Assembly (NCBI GenBank): GCA_902477135.1
Contig: CABSFR010000002.1
Coordinates: 9,649-73,648 of the forward strand
From: an uncultured Eubacteriales bacterium
GTDB taxonomy: Bacteria; Bacillota; Clostridia; Oscillospirales; Oscillospiraceae
Direction of reading: 5' to 3'
DNA: 64,000 bases
In this document: one piece after another, positions 2,861 through 64,000 of the stretch
Layout of the letters: each line of letters starts with the position of its first letter
How positions within the stretch are numbered: the first letter of the stretch is position 1
The notes under the pieces: generated by a model
Database searches by the model: none
What the model was told of the DNA's origin: nothing
The model's input: the letters and a program-made list of their open reading frames with translations, nothing else
Program-made: the position numbers and the translations under genes

Positions 2861-3723
2861 TGGAACGGATGCCGCTGAAAAAGAAAAAACGGGACGTCGG
2901 CGGGACGATCCTCACCGTCCTGTTTGTACTCGTCTGCCTGTTTTACCTCTATCCGATCATTCTTGTCTTCATCAATGCCTTTAAGAAAGAATCCTCCATC
3001 AACCTGCACACCTTCGCGCTGCCCACCGGAAAGACCTTTGCCGGACTGGACAACTTTGTCACCGGTGTGACGGTCGGCGACTATCCGTTCTATAAATCCC
3101 TGATCTTCAGCATGATCATCACGGTTCTCTCCGTGGCGCTCATCCTCCTGTGCACCTCCATGGCGGCGTGGTACATCTCCCGTGTGGGCAGCCGCTTCAC
3201 GAAGATCTTCTACTTTGCCTGCATCTTCTCCATGGTCGTGCCGTTCCAGATGGTCATGTTCCCGCTGGTCGATGTTTCGACCAAGCTCAAGCTCAACACC
3301 CCGTGGACGATCCCCATCGTCTACCTCGGCTTCGGCGCGGGTCTTGCGATCTTCATGTTCTCCGGCTTTGTCAAGAGCCTGCCGCTCGAGATCGAAGAGG
3401 CGGCGGCCATCGACGGCTGCGGCCCGATGCGCACCTTCTTCAGCGTGGTGCTGCCCATGCTCCGCCCGACGCTGATCTCCGTCGGCATTCTGGAGACCAT
3501 GTGGGTCTGGAACGACTACCTCCTGCCCAGACTTGTGCTGGACATCACCGAGTACCGCACCATTCCCATCCATGTGCAGTATTTGCAGGGCAGCTACGGC
3601 AAGGTGGACATGGGCGCGAGCATGGCCGTTATGGTCTTCAGCCTCCTGCCGATCATCATTGTCTACCTCTTCTGCCAGAAGTATATCATCAAGGGCGTCG
3701 CTGCGGGCGCGGTCAAGGGCTGA
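2860..3723 (+). CDS. ABC transporter permease (MalG/UgpE-like)
   Basis: EAA motif EEAAAIDGCGPMRTFFSVVLPMLRPTLI. Start overlaps the previous stop. Confidence 0.85.
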   Translation: MERMPLKKKKRDVGGTILTVLFVLVCLFYLYPIILVFINAFKKESSINLHTFALPTGKTFAGLDNFVTGVTVGDYPFYKSLIFSMIITVLSVALILLCTSMAAWYISRVGSRFTKIFYFACIFSMVVPFQMVMFPLVDVSTKLKLNTPWTIPIVYLGFGAGLAIFMFSGFVKSLPLEIEEAAAIDGCGPMRTFFSVVLPMLRPTLISVGILETMWVWNDYLLPRLVLDITEYRTIPIHVQYLQGSYGKVDMGASMAVMVFSLLPIIIVYLFCQKYIIKGVAAGAVKG

Positions 3724-3729
3724 GACACG

Positions 3730-4737
3730 ATGACGATCAAGGATCTTGCCCGCGAAACGGGGTACTCCATCGGTACCGTTTCTCGCGCCCTCAATGACCA
3801 TCCGAACGTCAGCGACAAGGCGCGCAAAACGATCCTTGCAGCCGTGGAACGGTACGGTTTTTCCGTCAATGCCAATGCGAAAAACCTGAAACAGCAGCGC
3901 TCCAAGAGCATCATCGCCATCGTCAAGGGCACGTCGAACGATCTTTTTGCCGCGATGGTCGAGCAGATGCAGAAGCTCTTTTACGACTCAAAATACGAAC
4001 TGATCACGGACTATATCGACGAGGACGACAACGAGGTGCGCCGCGCGGTGCAGCTGTGCGCCGAGCGCAAGCCGCTGGGGGTGCTCTTCCTCGGCGGCAG
4101 CAACCGCAACTTCCGGACGGATTTTCAAAAGATCTCCGTCCCCTGCGTCATCGTCACGAACGACGCGCGCGAGCTGCACCTTTCCGGACTGTCGAGCGTC
4201 AGCACCGACGATCGTGCGGCCGCGCGCTGCGCGGTCGATCGCCTGTTCCGCAGCGGCCACCGGCGCATTGCGCTGCTTGGCGGCGGCGACCGTTCCGATA
4301 CGTCCCACCTGCGCTACCTCGGTTGGGCGGACAGCTGCGAAGCGCACGGCGTCGCGCCGGAGCGGCTGCCCTGCACGCCGACGCGCTATTCCTATCAGGG
4401 CGGCTATCTTGCCATGCGCGAGGTGCTCAAGCGCAGCCCCGACGTCACGGCGGCCTTCGCCGTGGCGGACGTCGTCGCCATCGGCGCGATGCGCGCGATC
4501 CGCGAGGCGGGCAAGCACGTTCCGGAGGACGTCTCTGTGGTCGGCTTCGACGGCTTGCAGATCGGGGCGTATATGTCTCCGCAGCTGACTTCCGTCCGTC
4601 AGGATATTCGGCAGCTTGCCGTTCGCAGCGTCCGCATCCTGACCGATTGCATTGAAAACGGCCGCAGCGCACGCCATGAGACGGTCGAGTTTAGCCTGAT
4701 TGAGGGCGAAAGCGTTGCATCGCCAAAGGAAAAATGA
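3730..4737 (+). CDS. LacI-family transcriptional regulator (maltose/maltodextrin operon repressor-like)
   Basis: N-terminal HTH MTIKDLARETGYSIGTVSRALN and a periplasmic-binding-protein-like sugar-binding core. Confidence 0.85.
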   Translation: MTIKDLARETGYSIGTVSRALNDHPNVSDKARKTILAAVERYGFSVNANAKNLKQQRSKSIIAIVKGTSNDLFAAMVEQMQKLFYDSKYELITDYIDEDDNEVRRAVQLCAERKPLGVLFLGGSNRNFRTDFQKISVPCVIVTNDARELHLSGLSSVSTDDRAAARCAVDRLFRSGHRRIALLGGGDRSDTSHLRYLGWADSCEAHGVAPERLPCTPTRYSYQGGYLAMREVLKRSPDVTAAFAVADVVAIGAMRAIREAGKHVPEDVSVVGFDGLQIGAYMSPQLTSVRQDIRQLAVRSVRILTDCIENGRSARHETVEFSLIEGESVASPKEK

Positions 4738-4747
4738 GGTTGTTTTT

Positions 4748-6211
4748 ATGCGTGAAAGCGGTGTTTTGCTCCACCTTTCGTCGCTGCCGTCCCCTTGGGG
4801 CATCGGCACGATGGGAGCGGAAGCCTATAGCTTTATTGATTTTCTTCGCCGTTCCGGCCAGCGCTGCTGGCAGCTCCTGCCGCTGTATCCCACGGGCTAC
4901 GGCAATTCGCCCTATCAGTGCCTTTCCACCTTTGCGGGGAACCCTTATCTGATCGACCTGCGGCAGCTTGTGCAGGAGGGACTGCTCCTTGCCGACGAGC
5001 CGGAGGCTTACGACTGGGGCAGCGACGAGCGCCGCGTCGATTTCGGCGCGCTCTACCGCAACCGTTTGGCGCTGCTGCGCGTTGCGCACTCCCGCTTCCG
5101 CCCGACGGCGGAGTATGAGGCCTTTTGCAGCGGCCATTCGTGGCTGCGGGACTACGCGCTGTATATGGCGCTCAAGGATCATTTCGGTGCGCAGCCTTGG
5201 ACGCAGTGGGACGCACCCTACCGCAACCGCGACGCACGCACGCTGCGCGTCTTTGCCGACGAAAACGCGGACACGTTGGATTTTTACTGCTTTACGCAGT
5301 ATCTTTTCTTCCGCCAGTGGAAGGCGCTGCGCGCCTACGCCGCCGCGCAGGGGATCAGCCTGATCGGCGATGTGCCGATCTACGTCCCGCTGGACAGCGC
5401 CGACGTCTGGGCGGAGCCGCAGTGGTTCCAGCTCACGCGCGACGGCACGCCGGCGGCGGTCGCGGGCTGCCCGCCGGACTCCTTTAACGCCAACGGCCAG
5501 CTCTGGGGCAACCCTCTCTATGACTGGGCGCGGATGGAAAAGGACGGGTTTTCTTGGTGGATCCGCCGCCTGCGCGCGGCGGCAAGCTGCTACGACCGCA
5601 TCCGCTTGGATCATTTCCGCGGGCTGGAGAGCTATTGGTCGGTGCCGTGGGGCGCGGCCTCCGCGCGCTTTGGCCGCTGGGTCAAAGGCCCGGGCGCGGC
5701 GCTGATCGACGCGATCCGTGCCGCCCTGCCGGAGGTGCGCTTCATCGCGGAGGATCTTGGCTTCCTGACGCCGGAGGTGCGGGAGCTGCTGCGGCATTCC
5801 GGCTTCCCCGGCATGAAGGTGCTGGAGTTTGCCTTTGACCCGCGCGAACCGGGCAATTATCTGCCCGATACCTATACGGAAAACAGCGCCTGCTATACCG
5901 GCACGCACGACAACGAAACGCTGGCCGGGTGGCTGTGCCTCGCGACGCCGGAGGTGCTCGAAACGGCGCGCACCTATCTCAAAGTTACGCCGCAGGACGA
6001 TCTGCGCCGCGCGATCCTGCGCTGCGGCGCGCAGTGCGCCTCCGATCTGTTTATGGCACAGATGCAGGACTACCTCGGCTTGGACGCGCGCATGAACCGT
6101 CCGGGCACGACCGACGCGGAGAATTGGGTCTGGCGGCTGCGCCGCGGCGAACTGACCGACGCAGTAGCGCAGGAGATGCGCGAGCTTGCCGTGCTCGGAA
6201 ACAGAACTTGA
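4748..6211 (+). CDS. malQ: 4-alpha-glucanotransferase (amylomaltase, GH77)
   Basis: MRESGVLLHLSSLPSPWGIGTMG N-terminus and DHFRGLESYW catalytic region. Start chosen at the ATG 8 nt after RBS AAGGAAAAATGAGG (the track ORF begins 48 nt earlier). Confidence 0.85.
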   Translation: MRESGVLLHLSSLPSPWGIGTMGAEAYSFIDFLRRSGQRCWQLLPLYPTGYGNSPYQCLSTFAGNPYLIDLRQLVQEGLLLADEPEAYDWGSDERRVDFGALYRNRLALLRVAHSRFRPTAEYEAFCSGHSWLRDYALYMALKDHFGAQPWTQWDAPYRNRDARTLRVFADENADTLDFYCFTQYLFFRQWKALRAYAAAQGISLIGDVPIYVPLDSADVWAEPQWFQLTRDGTPAAVAGCPPDSFNANGQLWGNPLYDWARMEKDGFSWWIRRLRAAASCYDRIRLDHFRGLESYWSVPWGAASARFGRWVKGPGAALIDAIRAALPEVRFIAEDLGFLTPEVRELLRHSGFPGMKVLEFAFDPREPGNYLPDTYTENSACYTGTHDNETLAGWLCLATPEVLETARTYLKVTPQDDLRRAILRCGAQCASDLFMAQMQDYLGLDARMNRPGTTDAENWVWRLRRGELTDAVAQEMRELAVLGNRT

Positions 6212-6291: not shown

Positions 6292-7653
6292 TTAGAACTT
6301 AGGCAGCTTGGCGAGGCTCTTTGCGATGTCCTCGTCGGTCGGAATGCTGTCGGTCATCGTGCCGTCATTGAAGTTCTTGTAGGCATAGAGGTCAAAGTAG
6401 CCCGTGCCGGTCAGGCCGAAGAGAATGTTTTTCGCTTCGCCCGTTTCGCGGCAGCGGATCGCCTCGTCGATGGCGACCTTGATGGCGTGACTGCTCTCCG
6501 GCGCGGGCAGAATGCCCTCCGAACGTGCAAATTCCTCCGCAGCGGCAAAGACCGCCGTCTGCTCGACGCTCGTCGCCTCCAGATAGCCGTCGGCATAGAG
6601 CTGCGAGATGATGCCGCTCATGCCGTGGTAGCGCAGGCCGCCCGCATGGTTGGGGGAGGGAATGAAGCTGCTGCCCAGCGTGTACATCTTTTGCAGCGGG
6701 CAGACCATGCCGGTGTCGCAGAAGTCGTAGGCATAGACGCCGCGTGTCATCGAGGGGCAGGAGGCAGGCTCGACCGCGATGATGCGCATATCCGCTTCGC
6801 CGCGCAGCTTCTGCCCGACGAAGGGCGCGATCAGACCGCCTAAATTGGAGCCGCCGCCCGCGCAGCCGATCACGATGTCGGGACGGATGCCGTATTTGTC
6901 CATCGCGGTCTTGCATTCCAGACCGATGACCGACTGATGCAGCAGAACCTGAGACAGGACGCTGCCGAGAACGTAGCGATAGCCGTCGAGCTTTGTTGCC
7001 GTCTCGACCGCCTCCGAGATCGCGCAGCCGAGCGAGCCGTTCGTGTTCGGGAAGCGCTCCAAGATCTGGCGGCCGACCTGCGTCGTGTCGGAGGGAGAGG
7101 GTGTCACGCTTGCGCCATAGGTGCGCATGACCTCGCGGCGGAAGGGCTTCTGCTCATAGGAGACCTTGACCATATAGACGCGGCAGTCCAGATCGAAGTA
7201 GGCGCACGCCATGGAAAGCGCGGTGCCCCACTGACCGGCGCCGGTCTCGGTGGTCACGCCGCGCAGCCCCTGCTTCTTGGCATAGTAGGCCTGCGCGATG
7301 GCGGAGTTGAGCTTGTGGCTGCCGGAGGTGTTGTTGCCCTCAAATTTGTAGTAAATGTGCGCGGGGGTGTTGAGCTTCTTTTCCAGACAGTAGGCGCGCA
7401 CCAGCGGCGACGGGCGATACATCCGGTAAAAGTCCCGAATTTCCTGCGGGATCGGGAGATAGGGTGTGTCGCAGTCCAGCTCCTGCTGCGCAAGCTCGCG
7501 GCAAAAAACGCCGGAAAGCTCGTCGAGCGTCATCGGCTCGTGCGTCGCGGGATTGAGCAGGGGTGCGGGCTTCGTTTTCATGTCGGCGCGGACGTTGTAC
7601 CATGCGCGCGGCAGCTCCGATTCTTCCAGATAGATCTTGTAGGGGATTTCCAT
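6292..7653 (-). CDS. trpB: TrpB2-type tryptophan synthase beta-like PLP enzyme (stand-alone, no trpA nearby)
   Basis: ~450-aa TrpB2-length protein (MEIPYKIYLEESELPRAWYNVRADM...) with the PLP-binding fold. RBS AAAGGAGC 7 nt before the ATG at 7653. Confidence 0.8.
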   Translation of the reverse strand: MEIPYKIYLEESELPRAWYNVRADMKTKPAPLLNPATHEPMTLDELSGVFCRELAQQELDCDTPYLPIPQEIRDFYRMYRPSPLVRAYCLEKKLNTPAHIYYKFEGNNTSGSHKLNSAIAQAYYAKKQGLRGVTTETGAGQWGTALSMACAYFDLDCRVYMVKVSYEQKPFRREVMRTYGASVTPSPSDTTQVGRQILERFPNTNGSLGCAISEAVETATKLDGYRYVLGSVLSQVLLHQSVIGLECKTAMDKYGIRPDIVIGCAGGGSNLGGLIAPFVGQKLRGEADMRIIAVEPASCPSMTRGVYAYDFCDTGMVCPLQKMYTLGSSFIPSPNHAGGLRYHGMSGIISQLYADGYLEATSVEQTAVFAAAEEFARSEGILPAPESSHAIKVAIDEAIRCRETGEAKNILFGLTGTGYFDLYAYKNFNDGTMTDSIPTDEDIAKSLAKLPKF

Positions 7654-7679
7654 GGTTCTTGCTCCTTTCAAAAATGGGT

Positions 7680-8010
7680 CGGGAAAGGATAAAAAAATCC
7701 TGTCCCAGAAAAATTGCTGGGACAGGAATAAAATCTTCCTGCGGTGCCACCCGGCTTGGCGCTTGCGCGCCCGCTCATGCGTACCTGCATACGCTGACCT
7801 TGTTAACGAAGGGTCGGCTCCGTCTTGCCTACTTGCTTCAGCTTGCCCTCAGGCGCCCATTCGGCATCCGCGTCCATACCGCACTCCCACCAACGGCGGC
7901 TCTCTGTGATTTTCGCAAAACGCTTACTTACGCGCCTTCAACGGTTTACCGTATTAAACCACAGCGCGGGTCGTTTGTCAAGACCCTCCGGCCGCATTTT
8001 TTCGCTTTGG
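7680..8010 (-). promoter_or_regulatory. T-box riboswitch leader (probable tRNA-Trp) controlling trpB2. T-box motif CCGGGUGGCACCGC (complement of 7751-7764). A 10-bp perfect terminator stem CCUGUCCCAG/CUGGGACAGG (7709-7736) plus a U7 tract (7701-7707) lies immediately before the RBS
   Basis: Minus-strand RNA read directly from the sequence: ...AAGCGCCAAGCCGGGUGGCACCGCAGGAAGAUUUUAUUCCUGUCCCAGCAAUUUUUCUGGGACAGGAUUUUUUUAUCC. The GGGUGGNACCGCG consensus is matched. The downstream amino-acid biosynthesis gene fits. Confidence 0.7.
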
Positions 8011-8029
8011 TAAAAATGTAAATTTGGGA

Positions 8030-8060
8030 CTGGAAAAGCGTTGCTTTATGGTGTATAATG
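8030..8060 (+). promoter_or_regulatory. Extended -10 promoter (TGtTATAAT at 8052-8060) for the adenosine-deaminase-family gene
   Basis: TGnTATAAT read from the sequence; the -35 is poor. Confidence 0.4.
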
Positions 8061-8092
8061 ATAGGAAAAAGGATACCATGGGAGGAGAACTT

Positions 8093-9067
8093 ATGTATCA
8101 GGGAAAGGTCGACCTGCATCTGCATCTGGACGGATCGCTGTCGGAGCAGGTCGTTTTTGAATTGGCGCAGCGCGGCGGATTTCCGATGACCATGCAGGAG
8201 ATCTGCGATGCGATCTACGTTCCGGAAAACTGCACCGATCTTGTCGAGTACTTAAAGCGCTTCGAGCTGCCCACGCGCGTGCTGCAAACACCCTACGCGC
8301 TGGAATACAGCGCCTTTGAGCTGGTCGGCCGTCTGGCGCGGCAGGGACTGGTCTATGCCGAGATCCGCTTTGCTCCGCAGCTGCACACCCGTCAGGGCAT
8401 GACGCAGAGCGAGGTGGTGCGCAGCGTTCTGCGCGGCGTGCGGCAGGCGCAGGAGGCCAATCCGTCCATTCGCGCGGGCGTCCTGCTGTGCGCGATGCTG
8501 GGCAGCGACCGGCAGACCAACGAGCAGATCGTGCCGCTGGCCGCCGACTTTGCGGGACAGGGTGTCGTGGGCGTCGACCTTGCGGGTGCAGAAGACGTTT
8601 ATCCGATCGAGGACTACGCGCCCATCTTCCGCGAGGCCTACCGCGAGCAGATCCCCTTCACGCTGCATGCGGGCGAGCGCGGCAACGCGGAAAATGTCCG
8701 CAAGGCGGTCGAGCTTGGTGCGCGCCGCGTGGGACACGGCTGCGGCGCCATCCGCAGCGAGGCTTGCATGGAGCTTCTCCGGCGCGAGCGCATCGTGATC
8801 GAGACCTGCCCCGTCAGCAACCTGCACACGAAGATCGTTGCCCGCCCCGAGCAGCATCCGATCGCGGAATTCTTCCACCGCGGCCTTGCCGTCACGGTGA
8901 ACACCGACAACATGACCTGCTCCAATACGACCCTCAAGCGTGAGCACGAAGTACTCTTCAACGCGTTCCATTTCAGTGACGAAGACTTCCGGCTGATGGA
9001 CAGAAACGCCATCGGCGGCGCGTTCCTGCCGGAGGCAGAGAAGCCCGCGCTGTTGGAAAAACTTTGA
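8093..9067 (+). CDS. add: Adenosine/adenine deaminase family metallo-hydrolase. The usual SxNTDDP signature reads TVNTDNM here
   Basis: VDLHLHLDGS zinc-binding N-terminus and a TIM-barrel-length protein. Start at the ATG 8 nt after RBS GGGAGGAG (the track ORF starts 69 nt earlier). Confidence 0.75.
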   Translation: MYQGKVDLHLHLDGSLSEQVVFELAQRGGFPMTMQEICDAIYVPENCTDLVEYLKRFELPTRVLQTPYALEYSAFELVGRLARQGLVYAEIRFAPQLHTRQGMTQSEVVRSVLRGVRQAQEANPSIRAGVLLCAMLGSDRQTNEQIVPLAADFAGQGVVGVDLAGAEDVYPIEDYAPIFREAYREQIPFTLHAGERGNAENVRKAVELGARRVGHGCGAIRSEACMELLRRERIVIETCPVSNLHTKIVARPEQHPIAEFFHRGLAVTVNTDNMTCSNTTLKREHEVLFNAFHFSDEDFRLMDRNAIGGAFLPEAEKPALLEKL

Positions 9068-9117: not shown

Positions 9118-9542
9118 GCTTTGTTTCGGTAAAACAGCCGCACGCAGAGCGAGGCAAGCAGAATGCCCGCGCTGATGCCGAGGCAGGCATCCAGTGTCTT
9201 CAGACCGTAGTCACCCGCCGCTGCGTAGTTGTTTGAGAGAATGTTCGCGATGGTGTAGTAGAGCGAGCCGCCCGGCACGAGGACAACGATGGCAGGCGTC
9301 AGAAAGGTGACGACCGGCGCTTTGCGCAGCCGCGCGGCGACCTCGCAGTACATGGTCATGCAGAAGGCCGCGATCGTGTTGGCGAAAAAGCTGCCGACGG
9401 GGGCGCACAGCAGGTAGATCACCCACGTTACGCCGCCGCAGAGCGCCGTGTAGACAAGGTGGCGCGGGCGAACGCCGAAGAGAATGGCAAAGCCGAGCGT
9501 TCCGAACAGTGCGCTGAGCAGGGGGACGAGAAACTCTTTCAT
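9111..9542 (-). CDS. Threonine/serine exporter family protein, C-terminal-type subunit (YjjB/DUF3815-like, 4-5 TM)
   Basis: 143-aa all-TM protein. 4-nt overlap with the upstream yjjP-like gene. Confidence 0.7.
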   Translation of the reverse strand: MKEFLVPLLSALFGTLGFAILFGVRPRHLVYTALCGGVTWVIYLLCAPVGSFFANTIAAFCMTMYCEVAARLRKAPVVTFLTPAIVVLVPGGSLYYTIANILSNNYAAAGDYGLKTLDACLGISAGILLASLCVRLFYRNKAK

Positions 9543-10318
9543 ACTGCGCCTCCCATGATGTAGATCGCAATGGCGAAGCCGAAGGCGATCATGACGGCAA
9601 GCAGCACCGACTGGATGAGCTGGAGCGCGCCGGAGATCACGTCGCCGCCCATCATGTCGCGCACGGCGTTGTTCAGCGCCACCCCGGGCACGAGGATCAT
9701 AATGGTGCCGATCATGATCTTGTCCGGATGCTGCCCAAGTCCGAGCCGCGTCAGGCCGAGACCGACCAGACCGGCCAGCAGGGAAGCGAGCACCATGACG
9801 ATCATGCGATTGACAAAGCGCGGCGCATAGCGCTGGAAGATCGTCACCGCGCAGCCGGCTGCGGCGGCGCAGAGGCTGTCAAGCAGGTTGCCGCCGAAGA
9901 AGAAGACGAACCCCGCAGCGGCGCACATAGCCCCCAAGCAGACAAGCCAGAAGGGGTAGGGGCGGCGCGACTTTGCCTCGACGATCCGCGCCCGCAGCTT
10001 TGACAGCGGCAGCGCGCCGGTGCAAAGCTCGCGCGAGATCTCATTGAGCGCCTCGACCATATACATATTGTTCTTCGTTTCGTAGATGCGCCGCATTTGC
10101 TGGGAACGCACGCCGTCGCGCATCTGCACGGAGGCGACGATGAGCGACGGGATGGTGAAGACCTCCACGTGCTGCGCGCCGTAGGCAGCGCAAATGCGCT
10201 CGATGGTGTCCTCGACGCGGTGGATCTCGCCGCCGCTTTTCAAAATATGCTCACCGACATCCAGCGCGGCGCACAAAACGGTGTCCGCCTGCTCGATCGG
10301 CAGGGTCACTGTTTCCAT
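9539..10318 (-). CDS. Threonine/serine exporter family protein, N-terminal-type subunit (ThrE/YjjP, DUF1212-like)
   Basis: METVTLPIEQADTVLCAALDVGEHILKSGGEIHRVEDTIERI... soluble N-domain plus a C-terminal TM bundle. ATG is 4 nt after the TGA of the CotH gene; RBS GGGAGTGA. Confidence 0.7.
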   Translation of the reverse strand: METVTLPIEQADTVLCAALDVGEHILKSGGEIHRVEDTIERICAAYGAQHVEVFTIPSLIVASVQMRDGVRSQQMRRIYETKNNMYMVEALNEISRELCTGALPLSKLRARIVEAKSRRPYPFWLVCLGAMCAAAGFVFFFGGNLLDSLCAAAAGCAVTIFQRYAPRFVNRMIVMVLASLLAGLVGLGLTRLGLGQHPDKIMIGTIMILVPGVALNNAVRDMMGGDVISGALQLIQSVLLAVMIAFGFAIAIYIMGGAV

Positions 10319-50440: not shown

Positions 50441-54131
<3,691 letters not shown>

Positions 54132-54135
54132 TACG

Positions 54136-57828
<3,693 letters not shown>

Positions 57829-57835
57829 TGACCAA

Positions 57836-57880
57836 AGGGCGCGTTGCAAAATAAGGATTGCAGCGCGCTCTTATTTTATC
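57836..57880 (+). terminator. Imperfect hairpin plus TTATTTTAT after rpoC
   Basis: GGGCGCGTTGCAA...TTGCAGCGCGCTC. Confidence 0.5.
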
Positions 57881-57968: not shown

Positions 57969-59411
57969 ATGCACGCGTTACGATTTCGGGATTTTCTCGC
58001 GCGTGAGCGGTTTGCCGTTATAGCGGCCACCGTTCACTGGCTTACTTCGTTTGTTACCGAACGCTTTATTTTTGAGGTCGCGCCGACGGCCGACCTGCTG
58101 AACTATATTCTCTGCAAGGCCATCCTGTTTGCTGCGCTGTTCGGCTTCTGGCGTCTGATCTGGAAGGGACTGCTTGCTCCCGACCGCCGTACCAATCCGG
58201 AGCGCGCCTACCTGTCCTATGCGCTGCCGTATCTTTTTGCGCTGGTGCTGTGGATGCTCCTTGTGCGCCCCTATGAGCTGGTCGCGGACGAGCTGAGCCT
58301 GTATGAGCGCGCGCTCCGGCTGGACAGCTTTGCCTATTGGTTTAACTATCTTTCCGGCTTTTACTGGATCACCTGTCTGATGGTGCTGCCGCACTATCTC
58401 GGGCCGGTGCTGATCAAGCTGCTTTTACAGGCGCTCATCGCGGGCTACTGCGTCGCGCGGCAGGTTCGCCGCAGCGGCAGGCGGGGACTGCTGATGTACC
58501 TGCTGTTTTTGCTCCCCTTCACGATGGACATGGCGGTCTCCGCGCACCGCCTGCCCACCTACGGCATTGCCTACCTGTTTTTGATCGCCAAGCTGTATTA
58601 TGATTGGCTCGACCACAAGGCGCTGACGCGCACGACCCTCATCCTGCTCAGTGCGCTGATCGGTGTGCTGGCCTTCTGGCGCTCCGAGGGCATCTACCTT
58701 GTGCCGTTGGGTGCGATCCTGCTTTTGGTTGCCTACCGCCTAAAGCCGTGCAAGGCGCTTTGGAAGCAGGCCGCGCTCTACGCGCTGACCCTGCTTGTCG
58801 TCTTTCTTCCGCAGTGCAAGGCCTATGCCGAGTCGGAGGCGAGCCTGAGCCTCAGAACGAAGCCGCTTTGCGGCTATCTCCTGTGCAATATGTTCCGAAA
58901 CGGCCTGACGCCGGAGGACATTGCCGAGGAGCGCGCGGACATCGAGGCGTATCTCAAGCTCGACACGATCTATGATTATATCGAGCGCTATGGCGACGAG
59001 AACTATTATCAGGCCTACGTGATGGAAGGCGTGGAGGACGCGGACTATGCTGCGCAGGAGCGCTTTTGCGCGGCGGTCAAGCGCGTTGTCCTGAAGCACC
59101 CGATGATCTATCTGCGCGCGCAGTGGAACACATGGCGCTATCTCCACCGGCAGTATCCGCTCTCCGGCGCGAGAGCCGTGTTCCACCTGACCTATTGGCT
59201 GTGCATTCCCTGCGCGCTGGTGCTGGCAGCCTGCGTCTATGCGCTGCTGCGGCGCAGGTGGCTGGTCTTCTGGATCACGGGCGGCGGCATTGCAAACTGG
59301 CTGCTTGTCTTTTTGCTGATGCCCGCGGCTTATGCCAAGTATTTCTATGTTGACTACCTGATGGGTTATTTCTTCTTGCTTGCGTGGGTCTTAAAATGCA
59401 GAAAATCCTGA
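57969..59411 (+). CDS. Polytopic (~12 TM) membrane protein. Putative GT-C-type glycosyltransferase/polymerase (GtrC-like role) by context; no confident family assignment
   Basis: 480 aa, hydrophobic throughout. ATG 57969 after GGGGGAGAG. First gene of a gtrA/GT2-containing cluster. Confidence 0.4.
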   Translation: MHALRFRDFLARERFAVIAATVHWLTSFVTERFIFEVAPTADLLNYILCKAILFAALFGFWRLIWKGLLAPDRRTNPERAYLSYALPYLFALVLWMLLVRPYELVADELSLYERALRLDSFAYWFNYLSGFYWITCLMVLPHYLGPVLIKLLLQALIAGYCVARQVRRSGRRGLLMYLLFLLPFTMDMAVSAHRLPTYGIAYLFLIAKLYYDWLDHKALTRTTLILLSALIGVLAFWRSEGIYLVPLGAILLLVAYRLKPCKALWKQAALYALTLLVVFLPQCKAYAESEASLSLRTKPLCGYLLCNMFRNGLTPEDIAEERADIEAYLKLDTIYDYIERYGDENYYQAYVMEGVEDADYAAQERFCAAVKRVVLKHPMIYLRAQWNTWRYLHRQYPLSGARAVFHLTYWLCIPCALVLAACVYALLRRRWLVFWITGGGIANWLLVFLLMPAAYAKYFYVDYLMGYFFLLAWVLKCRKS

Positions 59412-59824
59412 AAAAGTTTCTTCAATTTGTGCTGGTTTCCGGCGTGGGCTGGCTGATCGACTTCGGCATCTACACGGTGCTGACGCGGCTTTGCGCCTTT
59501 CCGGTGGCCGGAGCGAACTATCTCAGCTCCATGGTCTCCGTCACCTTTGTCTTCTTCGTCTCCACAAAGAAGATCTTGGAGACGCGCGGCGGCAGCTGGT
59601 GGCGGAAATACCTGCTCTATGTGCTCTATCAGTTGCTGCTGATCACGGCGGTGTCGTTCTTGGCGCAGTGGATCGACCGGCTGCTGCGCGGCTGGACACT
59701 GCTGTGCAGCGTGCCGCTGCTGCGGCGCAACACCGCGTTGCTTTCGAAGATTCTCATCACACCGATCACCATGGTTTGTAACTTCTTCGTCCTGAGACGA
59801 ATTGCGGAGGGAAAACGTGAGTAA
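59396..59824 (+). CDS. GtrA-family small 4-TM protein (lipid-linked-sugar translocase-like)
   Basis: ~140 aa, 4 TM, GtrA-like FLQFVLVSGVGWLIDFGIY N-terminus. Overlaps the upstream gene. Confidence 0.75.
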   Translation: MQKILKKFLQFVLVSGVGWLIDFGIYTVLTRLCAFPVAGANYLSSMVSVTFVFFVSTKKILETRGGSWWRKYLLYVLYQLLLITAVSFLAQWIDRLLRGWTLLCSVPLLRRNTALLSKILITPITMVCNFFVLRRIAEGKRE

Positions 59825-60611
59825 AATTCTGATCTTTATTCCGATGTATCGCTGCGAAAAGCAGATTCCCAGAGTGCTGGCGCGCATTGCCGCACTCGGA
59901 GAGGAGCAAAAGCGATTTGCCGAGGTGCTTGTGGTGGACAACCGCAGTCCGGATGGCAGCATTGCCGCTGCGCGGCAAGCGCTGTCGAAGCTGTCCATTC
60001 CGGCACGCGTCGTGCGCAACTGCGAAAACTACAGCCTCGGCGGGTCGCATAAGGTCGCCTTTCAGTACGCCGTCGAGCAAGGCTTTGACGGTGTCGTCGT
60101 GCTGCACGGCGACGATCAGGGCGACATCGCGGACATTCTGCCCTATCTTCGCAGCGGCGAGACGGAGCGCTATGACTCGCTGCTCGGCTCCCGCTTTTCC
60201 AAGGACTCAAAGCTCGTCAACTACAGCGGTTTTCGCATTTTCGGCAACCGCGTCTTCAATGCCGTCTTTTCCCTCTTTACCGGAAAACGGGTGCAGGATC
60301 TCGGCGCGGGGCTGAACTATTACAAGACGAGCTACCTCCGCTCAAAATTCTACCTGTCGTTTCCCAATGACCTGACATTTAATGTATATCTTCTGCTCTA
60401 TGGGATCTATTGCAAGTCCGTCTTCCGCTTCTTCCCCCTGACGTGGCGGGAGGAGGATCAGGTCAGCAACGCAAAGCTGTTTTCGCAGACCAAGCGGATG
60501 CTCGGGCTGCTGATGCAATATCTCTTCTGCCGCAAAAAGCTGTTTTCCAGGGACGGCGGCGGGAAGGACTATCGCTATGAAGTCATGGCAGAATATCTGC
60601 CGGAGGGTTAA
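59817..60611 (+). CDS. Family 2 glycosyltransferase (GtrB/DPM1-like, soluble form)
   Basis: ILIFIPMYRCE...VVDNRSPDGS...VVLHGDDQGD (DxD). GTG start 6 nt after GGAGGG. Confidence 0.8.
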   Translation: MSKILIFIPMYRCEKQIPRVLARIAALGEEQKRFAEVLVVDNRSPDGSIAAARQALSKLSIPARVVRNCENYSLGGSHKVAFQYAVEQGFDGVVVLHGDDQGDIADILPYLRSGETERYDSLLGSRFSKDSKLVNYSGFRIFGNRVFNAVFSLFTGKRVQDLGAGLNYYKTSYLRSKFYLSFPNDLTFNVYLLLYGIYCKSVFRFFPLTWREEDQVSNAKLFSQTKRMLGLLMQYLFCRKKLFSRDGGGKDYRYEVMAEYLPEG

Positions 60612-60612
60612 C

Positions 60613-61350
60613 ATGGATACCTATCTGATGATGCCGATGGCGGGCGCGGGCAGCCGCTTTTTTCGGGATGGCTACGAGTGTCCGAAGCCGCTGATCGAAC
60701 TGCGTGGCAAGCCGTTTTTCTACTGGGCGGCAATGAGTGTGGTCGGGAAGATCCCCCTTGCGGGCGTCCGGTTTGTCGTTCTGCGGGAGCACATCGAGCG
60801 TTTCGCCATCGACCGCCGCATCCGCGACTACTTTTCGCAGGCAGAGGTGATCGTCCTTGACCACGTGCTCCGCGGGGCTGTCCTGACCTGCATGGAGGGC
60901 GTGAAGGATCTGTCCGCAGATGTACCACTGCTCTTTAACGACTGTGACCATCTGTTTTGCAGTGAGGCCATGGAGGCTCTGTGCCGTTTGCCGCAGCAGC
61001 AGCGCCCCGACGGCGTGCTGCTGACCTTCCACGCGACGGAGCCGAAATACAGCTTTGTTGCGCTGGATGCCGCCGGAAACGTAGAGCGGACGGTGGAAAA
61101 GCAGGCTATCAGCACGGAGGCCATCTGCGGCGCTTATTACTTTAACCGCAAGGAGCTTTTCGACCGTTACGCAGCGCGCTACCTTCAGGTGTGCCGCTAT
61201 GAGGAGTTCTTCATGAGCGGCGTGTACAACGAGATGATCGCCGACGGCCGCACGGTGCGCAGCCTGAAAACGCAGCTCCATGTTTCCTTCGGAACGCCGG
61301 AGGAGTACACGGCGGCGGAATGCCACCCGTTTTTTGAGGGGAAAACATGA
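60613..61350 (+). CDS. Sugar-/alcohol-phosphate nucleotidyltransferase (LicC/MurU/TarI-like NTP-transferase fold)
   Basis: N-terminal LMMPMAGAGSRF...KPLIELRGKP signature. RBS GGAGGG. Confidence 0.75.
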   Translation: MDTYLMMPMAGAGSRFFRDGYECPKPLIELRGKPFFYWAAMSVVGKIPLAGVRFVVLREHIERFAIDRRIRDYFSQAEVIVLDHVLRGAVLTCMEGVKDLSADVPLLFNDCDHLFCSEAMEALCRLPQQQRPDGVLLTFHATEPKYSFVALDAAGNVERTVEKQAISTEAICGAYYFNRKELFDRYAARYLQVCRYEEFFMSGVYNEMIADGRTVRSLKTQLHVSFGTPEEYTAAECHPFFEGKT

Positions 61351-63245
61351 CGGTACTGTATTTTCTGTGCGCTGTGGGCTTTTTGACCCTTGGGCACGTC
61401 TGCAAGGCGATCCGTTGGCGCAGGTTCGTCGGCGTCTATGAGGACACGCCGCTGCCCACGCTGCTCAGCGCGTTGGCCTCCGGCTATCTGGTCAGTTTCT
61501 ATCTGCCGCTGCATCTGGGCGAGGTCGTCCGCGTTGCGCTCTCCGGCAGAAAGATGAAGAACGGCTACGGCTATGCCATGGCGACCATCGCAGTGGATCG
61601 CTGCCTTGACGTCGTGTGTGTGGCGCTGATCTTCCTTGCCCTTGCGACGATCACGGCGTCCAAGACGATCCTGCACACGGCGCTGACTTATCTTATTTTG
61701 ACGGTGGCGCTGCTCGCGGTGCTGCTGCTTGTCGCGCTCAACAGCCGCCCCTGTAAAAAAATGGCGCTGCTGGGCTGCTCGGTCTTTAACGAAAAGATCA
61801 AGTTCCGTCTGCTGCTGTTTCTCTGGTCGCTGATCTCCTCCTTCAAGGATCTGATCCGGAAGGTCAACGTCTGGAAGCTGCTCCTCGACACCGTGATCAT
61901 GTGGGCGGCCTACCTTGCTTCCTACGCGATGCTCGCACGGATGCTTTGCAGGCAGGGGGCGGCAGTCGGATTTGTCGATGTGTTTTACATGATGTTCCAT
62001 ACCGGTGCGCTGTTCCGCTCCACCTTCGCGGTGACGAGCGGGATGTTCCGGCTGGTGCCTGAGCTGCTGCTGTGCGCATTCATTCTCGTGCCGCTGCCGC
62101 TGCTCCTGCTGGCCTCCGTGCTGATGCGCAAGGCCAAGCCGGCGACCGCAAGTATGCGCCTTCTGCCGCATTTGGAGCCGGAGGAGCAAATGCAGTTTCT
62201 CAACGCGTACTTCGAGGGCGAGCGGCCGGAGGCGATGCACGAGTTTCTTTCCATGAATGCGGATGCCTGCATCATCCGCGACTGTTCCTCCGGTTCCGAC
62301 GCGACCACGATGCTCTGCATGACAAAGGACGGGACGGTCTACCGCAAGTATGCCTTCGGTACGGCTGCTGCCGAAAAGCTCTTCGAGCAGGTGCAGTGGC
62401 TGCACGAGCAGACGGGTAAGCTCCCCCTGCCGGAGATCTGCAACGAAAAGCGGGGCAAGTACTCCTACCGCTATGATATGCCCTATGACAATTCCGCCGT
62501 GGGCTTTTTTGAGTATATCCACAGCCAGAGCGCGGAAAAAAGCTGGCACATCCTGCGCTCCGTGCTGGAGACCTTGCAGGAAAAGCTCTACACCGGTCAG
62601 ACGGCCGCCATTGACGAGGCGATGATCGAGCGCTATGTTACGCAGAAGGTCGAGGGCAACCTGCAAACCATCAGCCAGAGCCGCGCGCTGCGCGCGCTCT
62701 GCGAATATGAAACGCTGGAGATCAACGGTGTGACCTATCGCGGCCTGCCGCGCCTGCGGAAGATGTTCGAGATCCCGCACCTGCGTGAGATTTTTCAGGC
62801 GGAGCGCCGGGCGAACGTCCACGGTGACCTGACGATCGAAAACATCGTCTGTCGGCCGGAGCACGACGATTTTTACATCATCGACCCCAATCCGGACAAC
62901 CCCGTCAAAACGGCGGGCGTCGACTACGCGAAGCTGTTGCAGTCGCTGCACGGCGGCTATGAGTTCCTGCGCTATTCCCGTCCCGCTACGGTGGAGGGAA
63001 ACGCCGTGAACTTCCTTCAGCCCAATTCCGAGCGCTACCGGCAGATTTACTGCCGCTTTGATGCGTGGATGGCGGAGCACATGACCTTCGAGGAGCACCG
63101 CAGCGTTTACTACCATGAGATGATCCACTGGCTGCGCCTGATGCCGTATAAGATGCGCAAGAGCGAAAAGGGCGCGATCAAATACTTCGCCGCGATGATC
63201 GTCGTGATGAACGACATTTATGATCGCTTTGAGGAGGAGAAATGA
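61347..63245 (+). CDS. Fusion protein: N-terminal UPF0104/MprF-type flippase-like TM domain (residues ~1-300) plus C-terminal APH/choline-kinase-like phosphotransferase domain
   Basis: TM domain motif AIRWRRF...LPLHLGEVVRVAL. Kinase Brenner motif VHGDLTIENIVC and IIDPNPDN. Confidence 0.7.
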   Translation: MTVLYFLCAVGFLTLGHVCKAIRWRRFVGVYEDTPLPTLLSALASGYLVSFYLPLHLGEVVRVALSGRKMKNGYGYAMATIAVDRCLDVVCVALIFLALATITASKTILHTALTYLILTVALLAVLLLVALNSRPCKKMALLGCSVFNEKIKFRLLLFLWSLISSFKDLIRKVNVWKLLLDTVIMWAAYLASYAMLARMLCRQGAAVGFVDVFYMMFHTGALFRSTFAVTSGMFRLVPELLLCAFILVPLPLLLLASVLMRKAKPATASMRLLPHLEPEEQMQFLNAYFEGERPEAMHEFLSMNADACIIRDCSSGSDATTMLCMTKDGTVYRKYAFGTAAAEKLFEQVQWLHEQTGKLPLPEICNEKRGKYSYRYDMPYDNSAVGFFEYIHSQSAEKSWHILRSVLETLQEKLYTGQTAAIDEAMIERYVTQKVEGNLQTISQSRALRALCEYETLEINGVTYRGLPRLRKMFEIPHLREIFQAERRANVHGDLTIENIVCRPEHDDFYIIDPNPDNPVKTAGVDYAKLLQSLHGGYEFLRYSRPATVEGNAVNFLQPNSERYRQIYCRFDAWMAEHMTFEEHRSVYYHEMIHWLRLMPYKMRKSEKGAIKYFAAMIVVMNDIYDRFEEEK

Positions 63246-63823
63246 AACAGAGGCTTGCCATTTTTGACTTCGATGGTACTTTGTTTGACACCGTGCCCGC
63301 CAACTACGCCGCTTATCGGCAGGTGCTGGAGCCGTACGGCGTTTCGCTGAGCGAGAACTGCTTCGCGAGCGCGTGCAACGGGCGGTACTATCGGGATTTT
63401 CTGCCCCCGCTGCTGCCCGACGCAAGCCGCGAGCAGATCGACGCGATCCATCGGGCGAAGATCGAGTGCTACCCGAGCTTTTACGATCGGATCGTCGAGA
63501 ACACGGCGCTTTTCGACCTTCTCGCGGCGCTTTCCGAGACATATTTTATTGCGCTGGTCTCCACGGCGACGAAGCAAAGCGTGCTTGACATCCTTACAAA
63601 ATTCCGCCGCGTATCGGCCTTTGACCTGATCCTCACGCAGCAGGATGTGCCGAAGAAGAAACCGGCGCCGGACGGCTTCCTGATGGCGATGCGCCACTTT
63701 CATGTTGCGCCGGAGCAGACGATCATCTTTGAGGATTCGCCCGAGGGCGAGCAGGCGGCACAGGCCTGCGGCGCGGCCTGCCTGATGGTGCACGAGATCG
63801 TTTCGGGAGGGAAGACGGCATGA
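63242..63823 (+). CDS. HAD-IA family phosphatase (beta-PGM/MupP-like)
   Basis: Motif I IFDFDGTLFDT, motif II VSTATK, motif III KKKPAPDGF, motif IV EDSPEG. Confidence 0.8.
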   Translation: MKQRLAIFDFDGTLFDTVPANYAAYRQVLEPYGVSLSENCFASACNGRYYRDFLPPLLPDASREQIDAIHRAKIECYPSFYDRIVENTALFDLLAALSETYFIALVSTATKQSVLDILTKFRRVSAFDLILTQQDVPKKKPAPDGFLMAMRHFHVAPEQTIIFEDSPEGEQAAQACGAACLMVHEIVSGGKTA

Positions 63824-64000
63824 AACGCAGATCGCAGTTCGACGCTCTTCGCATTGCCGCCTGCTGCATGGTCGTCATGATCCATGTGAGCTTTTCCAAA
63901 TGGGACGCCGCGCCGGTGCGGTCGCTCCATTTTACCGTCTGCAACCTCTTTGACAGCATGGTAAGCCCCGCCGCCGTTCCGCTGTTCGTCATGCTCTCCG
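63820..64000 (+). CDS. Acyltransferase family 3 (OatA/OafA-like O-acetyltransferase), 5' fragment running off the window
   Basis: MKRRSQFDALRIAACCMVVMIHVSF... typical AT3 N-terminus. ATG overlaps the HAD stop. Confidence 0.65.
   Translation, partial: MKRRSQFDALRIAACCMVVMIHVSFSKWDAAPVRSLHFTVCNLFDSMVSPAAVPLFVMLS

Follow-up and report, generated by a model that had tools for sequence, protein, structure and literature searches.

The stretch of DNA analysed here, hereafter the window, comprises 64,000 nucleotides from an uncultured Eubacteriales bacterium of the Oscillospiraceae (GenBank assembly GCA_902477135.1, contig CABSFR010000002.1, positions 9,649 to 73,648 of the forward strand). At 61347..63245 of its + strand, an open reading frame (ORF) with an ATG start encodes a protein of 632 aa, referred to below as the fusion, in which an MprF-type flippase-like membrane domain (PF03706) is followed by a kinase domain of the APH/choline-kinase fold. 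The reading that we favour, with moderate confidence, is that the fusion serves as the two-domain inner-membrane hub of a multi-component cassette for extracytoplasmic glycosylation. This cassette most likely activates a sugar, loads it onto a lipid carrier and decorates the cell wall from outside; by analogy, it would operate as three-component glycosylation systems do, with a sugar supply of its own.

Direct support for this reading comes from both folds, from catalytic motifs that are intact, from the organisation of the operon and from a statistical link between the membrane domain and a GT2 glycosyltransferase of putative lipid-phosphate type. Indeed, such a GT2 gene was found in 58/65 fused loci and in a locus where the fusion is naturally split (59/66 in all), versus 0/4 loci in which the kinase occurs without PF03706 (Fisher's exact p = 3.6e-4). 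The membrane domain follows the occurrence of this GT2 and not the chemistry of the kinase.

In the proposed mechanism, we infer what class of substrate the kinase uses, whether HAD or the kinase acts first, and which lipid carrier, flipping activity and acceptor are involved. The cytoplasmic C-terminal domain would be an active small-molecule kinase, most likely an anomeric sugar kinase. Together with the neighbouring HAD hydrolase and nucleotidyltransferase (NT), it would convert a sugar or sugar-6-phosphate to a sugar-1-phosphate and then to a nucleoside-diphosphate (NDP) sugar, following the logic of the route from MupP through AmgK to MurU, and an SDR enzyme, where present, would epimerise the product. 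The ArnC/DPMS-like GT2, which is devoid of transmembrane (TM) segments, would then transfer the sugar onto undecaprenyl phosphate (Und-P), while the MprF-type domain would hold the module at the membrane and move the Und-P-sugar to the outer leaflet. Translocation could proceed by promiscuous, energy-independent scrambling as for MprF, selectivity arising from the lipid made beside the domain. Finally, a GT-C-like protein of 480 aa would transfer the sugar onto a cell-wall polymer, which an Acyl_transf_3 enzyme may acylate.

The two domains of the fusion

The position, strand and length of the ORF, as well as the motifs RWRRF, PLHLGEVVRVAL, HGDLTIENIV and IIDPN, all of which were found in the window translation, are as given in the initial annotation. 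Its N-terminal half was matched by the Pfam model PF03706 (LPG_synthase_TM) with 51.6 bits against a gathering cutoff of 33.4, over residues 4-214 and profile positions 34-246 of 302, and the same model matched 31/31 relatives of the fusion. In the predicted model, the domain has the fold of TM subdomain 1 of MprF. Because the profile match starts at position 34, the fusion has one helix fewer than the canonical PF03706 domain, and the '8+ TM helices' given at first were generous; the UPF0104/flippase-like assignment itself was right. The helix count was read from the predicted model and not from a strict Kyte-Doolittle scan, which returned only four clear TM segments because the helices of this domain are polar. 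Six charged residues of the membrane domain (R23, E32, R62, D84, D88 and K137) are invariant across the family, the mean identity being 47% in the TM domain versus 50% in the kinase domain. The C-terminal DUF2156/LPG_synthase_C domain of MprF proper gave no Pfam match in the fusion or its relatives; the fusion is a member of PF03706, not an MprF. A gene-fusion artefact was ruled out, since isolate genomes, besides hundreds of independent assemblies, show the same full-length architecture. Besides, a subfamily of ~700 aa (locus L095, 5680-7779; protein P0285) carries the complete PF03706 profile, covered at positions 2-302 in P0285, with one helix in addition to those of the window protein; in L095, two GtrA genes in tandem and a NUDIX gene come after this longer fusion.

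The AlphaFold model of the fusion, built on 31 homologues, had a mean pLDDT of 89.6 and a pTM of 0.75. When it was compared with the PDB by Foldseek, the top matches were only APH-type small-molecule kinases (probability 1.00), namely APH(3'), FN3K, APH(2''), APH(9), MTR kinase, LicA and NahK, and LicA was equalled or outscored by the aminoglycoside and sugar kinases. By sequence, PF01636 (Pfam) did not match the window protein at E <= 0.1, and no curated kinase family of Pfam or NCBIfam rose above threshold for the fusion, only TCAD9 (E = 0.014) and Bud32 (E = 0.066) being seen. Searches of the PDB by sequence, made with the kinase half alone and with a 31-sequence family profile, found nothing relevant. 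PF01636 was matched by 5/31 relatives (best E = 3e-7), and a more distant relative, P0258, lies above its cutoff (43.2 bits against 23.2), so that the homology of the kinase domain to PF01636 appears supported indirectly, via these relatives.

Across 31 sequences with 39-70% identity, the following kinase motifs do not vary: S317/A319-C324 (GSDATTMLC), R333-F337 (with K334 in RKYAF), H492-G-D494-x-T496-x-x-N499 and I512-D-P-N515 (including D513). The catalytic-loop HxDxxxxN, the metal-binding Asp and the ATP-binding Lys are all present, residue roles being assigned by analogy, and the H, G, D, N, D and K of these motifs are also invariant in 18 standalone homologues. An NCBIfam scan of these 18 proteins gave sub-threshold matches to Bud32, APH(3'), APH(6) and Kdo-kinase and none to a named sugar kinase. 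Taken together, the predicted fold, the motifs and the indirect profile matches confirm the kinase assignment of the C-terminal half at the level of the model; the domain is APH-like by fold and lies outside every curated kinase family. Domain databases thus placed the membrane half of the annotated architecture above cutoff, the kinase half remaining below threshold in curated families.

The soluble NT-kinase-HAD module

The fusion is part of a compact operon located right behind rpoB and rpoC (Table 1). Its start overlaps the NT stop by 4 bp (ATGA) and its own stop overlaps the HAD start in the same manner; as read from these junctions, the fusion is translationally coupled to NT upstream and to HAD downstream. 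This neighbourhood recurs in related genomes, with NT within 150 bp in 68/80 genome loci and HAD in 73/80. Where at least 3 kb of flank was available on both sides (n = 57 fused loci), NT was present in 57, HAD in 56, GT2 in 52, a large membrane protein in 39, GtrA in 23 and a PF01370 NDP-sugar epimerase/dehydratase in 23 (~40%). Among fused loci made non-redundant at 90% identity, metagenome loci being added, the counts were 65/65 for NT, 64/65 for HAD and 58/65 for GT2.

The family is widespread. At least 478 full-length homologues of ~635 aa were found, and those that are named bear only the name 'flippase-like domain-containing protein', which overlooks the kinase half entirely. A relative is encoded in 249 GTDB species-representative genomes, mostly of Oscillospiraceae, Lachnospiraceae, Gemmiger and other Bacillota, with a few Treponema or other Spirochaetes and one metagenome-assembled genome of the Desulfovibrionaceae; Gemmiger gallinarum DSM 109015, Paenibacillus hunanensis and Johnsonella ignava ATCC 51276 are among the carriers in culture. 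When only the kinase domain served as query in an exhaustive HMMER search, 815 representatives of clusters were retrieved at E <= 1e-3, 228 of them at E <= 1e-30, the family thus being counted as at least 815 clusters at 50% identity.

The kinase also exists without the membrane domain. About 20 of the best 150 matches to the kinase domain are complete proteins of 320-362 aa (~340 aa) with no TM segment; they share 35-40% identity with the fusion, keep all motifs and start at about residue 297, without the linker helix. Four independent standalone loci (L090/L091, L092, L093 and L094) each show the NT-kinase-HAD arrangement, preceded in 3/4 by a PF01370-type epimerase, within clusters encoding ordinary cytoplasmic glycosyltransferases (polysaccharide clusters) or other functions. 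Within 7 kb of the standalone kinases, GtrB-like GT2, GtrA and PF03706 were found in 0/4 loci. The standalone class is made up of these four loci, to which one split locus is added, candidates truncated at contig ends and the short L177 being left out; a metagenome scan seeded with standalone kinases retrieved almost only fused genes. Two apparent standalones from human-gut metagenomes (L108 and L134, ~7650-9000) are interrupted fused genes, with a match to the TM domain 168-351 bp upstream of the kinase in another frame, which possibly reflects a frameshift, a pseudogene or an assembly error. Just upstream of the standalone SDR-NT-kinase-HAD genes of L092, a 573-aa protein (3468-5189) with a weak APH (PF01636) match may be a second kinase-like gene product.

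Covalent fusions connect the same three activities: kinase and HAD are joined in P0181 and P0239 (513 and 541 aa), NTP_transferase and kinase in P0286 (568 aa). Considering these fusions and the standalone triads, we therefore regard kinase, NT and HAD, from their gene arrangements, as one soluble metabolic module. The initial proposal that the kinase feeds the adjacent NT is hence well borne out, by the ATGA overlaps, by the conserved adjacency of NT and HAD, and by the three fused proteins. In mycobacterial MurJ, the fused partner is a regulatory pseudokinase. Such a MurJ/MviN-like role was rejected here because all catalytic residues are invariant, and thus intact, and because the domain forms part of a metabolic triad.

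That the module would yield an NDP-sugar is indicated by the presence of the epimerase and by the nature of its partners, a sugar-type NT and a sugar-phosphate-type HAD. The best solved relative of NT is 4evw, described as 'nucleoside-diphosphate-sugar pyrophosphorylase' (E = 2.7e-16 over the full length), and its weak NCBIfam matches are RmlA-long, AglF, HddC and MurU. For HAD, the best PDB match is the phosphorylated-carbohydrate phosphatase TM_1254 (E = 4e-18), followed by beta-phosphoglucomutases. By analogy with GmhB, the order of the steps may be the reverse of that in the MupP route, the kinase acting first and a bisphosphate phosphatase second.

The choline- or ethanolamine-type substrate considered in the initial annotation fits these data poorly. 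In a pathway resembling LicA/LicC, the kinase would phosphorylate choline, ethanolamine or another amino-alcohol, NT would make a cytidine-diphosphate alcohol for a wall polymer and the membrane domain would replace the LicB permease. A kinase beside an NT is indeed the LicA-LicC arrangement, and L006 encodes a nearby lysozyme with choline-binding repeats; we nevertheless hold this pathway to be very unlikely, as an NDP-sugar epimerase/dehydratase gene lies inside the cassette in ~40% of loci, the NT relatives (4evw among them) are sugar-1-phosphate transferases, the transferase is an ArnC/DPMS-like GT2, and no LicD- or LicB-type family was among the Pfam matches of the window operon or of 10 related loci. 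In addition, a sugar-phosphate-type HAD has no role in the Lic pathway, and aminoglycoside and sugar kinases score as well as or above LicA in the structure comparison. In contrast with LicA/LicC, the epimerase, HAD and GT2 thus point to a sugar, not an amino-alcohol.

Another possibility follows from MprF and AglD, where the fused enzyme modifies the lipid that is later translocated: the kinase might act on a lipid presented by the TM domain, either undecaprenol, giving Und-P, or a lipid-linked sugar, with phosphorylation coupled to flipping. This we consider highly improbable, since the soluble homologues, with 35-40% identity and all motifs, belong to triads with neither a membrane partner nor a lipid-phosphate GT2, and the covalent fusions to NT and HAD argue for a soluble metabolite passed among three enzymes. 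Both couplings first envisaged for the fusion, phosphorylation of a lipid head group and phosphorylation coupled to import, are weakened because complete soluble kinases occur in the same triad without membrane domain and because the membrane domain tracks GT2.

Table 1. Features of the cassette region in the window, in order of position.
Feature	Position	Strand	Details
rpoB (ORF is the 3' part of the gene)	51951-54131	+	Directly upstream of the cassette region
rpoC	54061-57828	+	Cassette begins ~140 bp downstream
Polytopic membrane protein, 480 aa, candidate GT-C-type glycosyltransferase	57969..59411	+	Probable start M38; ORF opens at 57858
GtrA-family small membrane protein, 142 aa	59396..59824	+	PF04138, 36.5 bits against a cutoff of 26.1; gene call on L001
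GT2 glycosyltransferase, 264-269 aa, without TM anchor	59817..60611	+	PF00535, E = 5e-12
Sugar-phosphate NT, 245 aa from probable start	60613..61350	+	ORF opens at 60577; PF00483, 21.4 bits against a cutoff of 21.2
MprF-type flippase-like membrane domain (PF03706 / UPF0104 / 'PplT')	61347..62132	+	Fusion residues 1-262
Cytoplasmic linker with two helices (278-290, 294-303); probable membrane-kinase docking element	62133..62261	+	Residues 263-305; helices from the model
APH/choline-kinase-fold small-molecule kinase domain, predicted active	62262..63245	+	Residues 306-632 and stop codon
HAD-IA hydrolase, 193 aa, beta-phosphoglucomutase / sugar-phosphate phosphatase subfamily	63242..63823	+	PF13419, E = 2e-28; TIGR02009, E = 3.7e-24
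Acyl_transf_3 membrane acyltransferase (start only; 341 aa in full)	63820..64000	+	Runs past the window end

Membrane domain and proposed lipid-linked steps of the cassette

The role of the membrane domain was considered together with that of GT2. The best NCBIfam matches of the window GT2 are ArnC, AglJ, Dol-P-hexose transferase and PpgS, all far below the equivalog cutoffs, and its best PDB matches are ArnC (9hwj, E = 6e-5) and DPMS (5mlz); the enzyme is a candidate polyprenyl-phosphate sugar synthase. ArnC, GtrB and DPMS bear C-terminal TM helices. The cassette GT2s examined (window 59817-60611 and loci L002, L004, L006, L008, L074 and L095) are shorter, with 257-288 aa versus 322-374 aa for the ArnC/DPMS chains matched in the PDB, and none of the seven has a hydrophobic segment (maximum KD19 <= 1.33). 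Therefore, the cassette GT2 probably requires a membrane partner.

Such a partner could be the PF03706 domain acting as a membrane anchor or activator for GT2 and the NDP-sugar module instead of as a flippase, as GacJ does for GacI or DPM3 for DPM1, flipping being left to GtrA, to an ArnE/F-like pair or to a remote flippase. We see this main rival of the hub reading as possible, if tentative. The absence of TM segments from 7/7 cassette GT2s fits it, and GT-A enzymes of the cytoplasm that depend on a separate membrane protein have been described (PMC8035078). Besides, other candidates for flipping exist near many fusions. The GtrA-family protein encoded in the window operon is proposed to be an Und-P-sugar flippase or a membrane partner of GT2, and among non-redundant loci with at least 5 kb of flank, a GtrA-like gene was found in 24/49, an ArnE/F-like EamA pair in 2/49 and GT2 in 45/49. 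In 23/49 of these loci neither a GtrA-like nor an ArnE/F-like gene lies within 5-8 kb, a count that covers the loci only, not the rest of the genome, and in which small divergent GtrA genes may have escaped tblastn. In L. lactis, one remotely encoded GtrA-type protein serves several systems, so that absence at a locus does not equal absence from the genome. The kinase is also fused to a different membrane domain, in the 795-aa protein P0169, where an N-terminal Acyl_transf_3 domain takes the place of PF03706 before a kinase of the same family.

On the other hand, six invariant charged residues and a mean identity of 47% would be superfluous for a passive anchor, the fold is shared with the sole bacterial domain of demonstrated scramblase activity, and the 23/49 loci have no alternative flippase candidate nearby. 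Anchor and flippase roles are, moreover, not mutually exclusive: tethering and flipping may both be true, and the best reading, by analogy, would be that the PF03706 domain both tethers the module with its TM-less GT2 and translocates the Und-P-sugar.

A natural split of the fusion was found in L176 (1848-8647), where a gene for a 262-aa PF03706 protein is separated by a 23-bp gap from that of a 362-aa kinase, accompanied by GT2, NT and HAD. Two 115-aa EamA genes of the ArnE/ArnF type lie upstream, at the position that GtrA occupies in other loci, as the anchor explanation would have it. The split kinase keeps the linker helix (its sequence starts ...EQLKFLKEYF), whereas the true standalones lack it, which suggests that this helix is a defined docking surface; linker residues P274, F284, L285, Y288, F289 and N304 are invariant across the family. 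A further-reaching scheme may be considered, in which kinase, NT, HAD and GT2 dock via the linker helix on a genuine Und-P-sugar flippase as a membrane 'assembly line'. One complex would then take a cytoplasmic sugar through phosphorylation, nucleotide activation, lipid loading and translocation, and the nucleotide or substrate state of the kinase might gate translocation. In our view, this scheme is doubtful.

The membrane domain might instead import the small substrate of the kinase, a free sugar or similar compound, phosphorylation trapping it and feeding NT. The cytoplasmic kinase does follow right after the last TM helix through a conserved linker, the hydrophilic cavities of MprF-type domains open towards both sides (PMC11980842), and a HAD-kinase-NT route can begin with a free sugar. 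Yet no PF03706 member is known as a transporter of soluble solutes, the membrane domain correlates with the lipid-phosphate GT2 (59/66 versus 0/4 loci), and salvage of external sugar would be equally useful to the standalone triads feeding cytoplasmic glycosyltransferases, which do without such a domain. Import is accordingly quite unlikely.

Returning to the hub reading, several points weigh against it. The class of kinases without PF03706 is small, with four independent loci. The kinase has no curated sugar-kinase match, and the class of its substrate is therefore deduced solely from context. GtrA, the usual proposed flippase, is present in this operon and in about half of the loci, so that a second flippase looks redundant. 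The enzyme that is fused would catalyse the first step of the pathway, unlike the lipid-forming enzymes of MprF and AglD, and an argument from 'local concentration' needs a presumed complex between GT2 and the fusion. The kinase fused to the unrelated Acyl_transf_3 membrane domain (P0169) fits simple tethering. Lastly, the GT-C assignment of the 480-aa neighbour is weak, its best Foldseek match having E = 0.17.

From its predicted model, this 480-aa protein would probably be a GT-C transferase and is a candidate for the last step of the cassette. Its start at M38 agrees with homologues and with the gene call on L001, a contig identical to this region, and it has no Pfam match. The model (pLDDT 91.2, pTM 0.90) gave meaningful Foldseek probabilities with GT-C enzymes only: Pmt4 at 0.98, albeit with E = 0.17 and a TM-score of 0.42, then the weaker PglB (0.33), EmbB (0.28) and ALG3 (0.21). 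An invariant D107-E108 pair is suggestive only, and the relative of this protein in L006 shows a weak DUF2142 match. At the other end of the operon, L001 carries a PF01757 gene at 9209-10234, corresponding to the window from 63820 onward and overlapping the HAD stop by 4 bp, which suggests O-acylation of the same glycan.

In one lineage, a second sugar-modification cluster is present downstream of the cassette (L006, 10731-17923, and L007), with genes for a SPASM protein, an MptE-like protein, a methyltransferase, CTP_transf_3, an HMGL-like protein and a HAD. In L006, it is followed by the gene for a GH25 lysozyme with choline-binding repeats.

Significance and comparison with known systems

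Which bacterial proteins flip Und-P-linked sugars is still unsettled, and direct biochemical proof is lacking for every candidate, be it GtrA, Wzx, MATE or SMR (PMC11127046); the fusion family offers a testable PF03706 case. A role of PF03706 in glycosylation had previously only been predicted, in archaea, and the family ties this domain to a GtrB-like pathway in common gut Bacillota. If the assembly-line scheme were true, it would represent a third bacterial class of Und-P-sugar flippase, and, if the domain is a flippase, the fused, split and standalone forms would make a natural series on how such flippases gain specificity. Besides, its kinase makes up a family that is so far uncurated, and the NT-kinase-HAD triad a putative, unannotated route, in abundant gut bacteria, to an NDP-sugar for cell-surface glycans.

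The aminoacyl-phosphatidylglycerol synthases taken at first as the known partners of this membrane domain are far from alone. PF03706 ('PplT') occurs in 148 catalogued architectures, which include GT-A, GT-B, protein-kinase, HAD, O-antigen-ligase and phosphotransferase partners (Hauser et al. 2022; bioRxiv 10.1101/2022.03.11.483950). Diverse PF03706 fusions, including N-terminal protein-kinase ones, are hence already known, and what appears new here is the C-terminal fusion to an APH-fold kinase within an NT-kinase-HAD/GT2 cassette. Our literature searches found no description of this fusion, of its NT-kinase-HAD module or of the GtrB-like link. The actinobacterial protein-kinase-PplT fusions (Hauser et al. 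2022) likewise combine a flippase-type membrane domain with a kinase fold, but the kinase there is N-terminal and described as a protein kinase, whereas here it is C-terminal and of the small-molecule (APH) type.

MprF of P. aeruginosa scrambles lipids promiscuously and independently of energy, the fused enzyme determining its physiological substrate (PMC11980842). In contrast to MprF, the fusion is devoid of DUF2156/LPG_synthase_C, of one helix of the canonical profile and of the second TM subdomain (TM9-14); instead of a lipid-modifying enzyme, it has as partner a kinase whose substrate is most likely a soluble metabolite, and its context is glycosylation, not phospholipid aminoacylation. 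The archaeal AglD, in which a Dol-P-hexose GT2 is fused to PF03706 beside a GT-C neighbour, is closer in context, PF03706 being the predicted flippase of the pathway (Makarova et al. 2015, PMC5898192). As in AglD and related archaeal neighbourhoods, PF03706 is here associated with a putative polyprenyl-phosphate-hexose GT2 and a candidate GT-C-type transferase, presumably for extracytoplasmic glycosylation. However, GT2 itself is fused in AglD, whereas here it is separate and TM-less, the fused partner being the sugar-activation kinase, and the family is bacterial (Bacillota and some Spirochaetes) instead of archaeal.

The soluble module resembles MupP/AmgK/MurU of Pseudomonas, which consists of a HAD 6-phosphatase, an APH-fold anomeric kinase and a uridylyltransferase (PMC5371407). 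In both cases, a HAD-IA sugar-phosphate phosphatase, an APH-fold kinase and a sugar-1-phosphate NT are encoded together, and an NDP-sugar would be made without a phosphomutase. The specific models nevertheless fail on the window proteins, MurU (NF045761) giving E = 0.05 and 13.5 bits against 250, and MupP (NF009696) 22.7 bits against 359. AmgK is, moreover, soluble and unfused and its product goes to peptidoglycan synthesis, whereas a lipid-phosphate GT2 would be the recipient here.

Stand-alone PF03706 proteins, GpgF and HexF, are predicted glycolipid flippases of the GpgSDF and HexSDF systems (PMC12713373). GpgSDF of P. aeruginosa and HexSDF of C. difficile share with the cassette the association of PF03706, as proposed flippase, with a glycosyltransferase, but they make glycerolipids with GT4-type enzymes and a deacetylase, and lack both a fusion and any module of kinase, NT or HAD. 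As in GtrA/GtrB/GtrC and CsbB/GtcA/YfhO, the cassette combines genes for a putative GT2 of the ArnC/DPMS/GtrB type, for a member of the GtrA family and for a large polytopic protein that is GT-C-like. In multi-component glycosylation systems of this kind, the flippase slot is held by unrelated families, none of them biochemically proven (PMC8035078, PMC11127046). Unlike these three-component systems, the cassette has a GT2 without C-terminal TM helices and its own module for NDP-sugar supply, and PF03706 is its constant membrane component, GtrA being present in about half of the loci.

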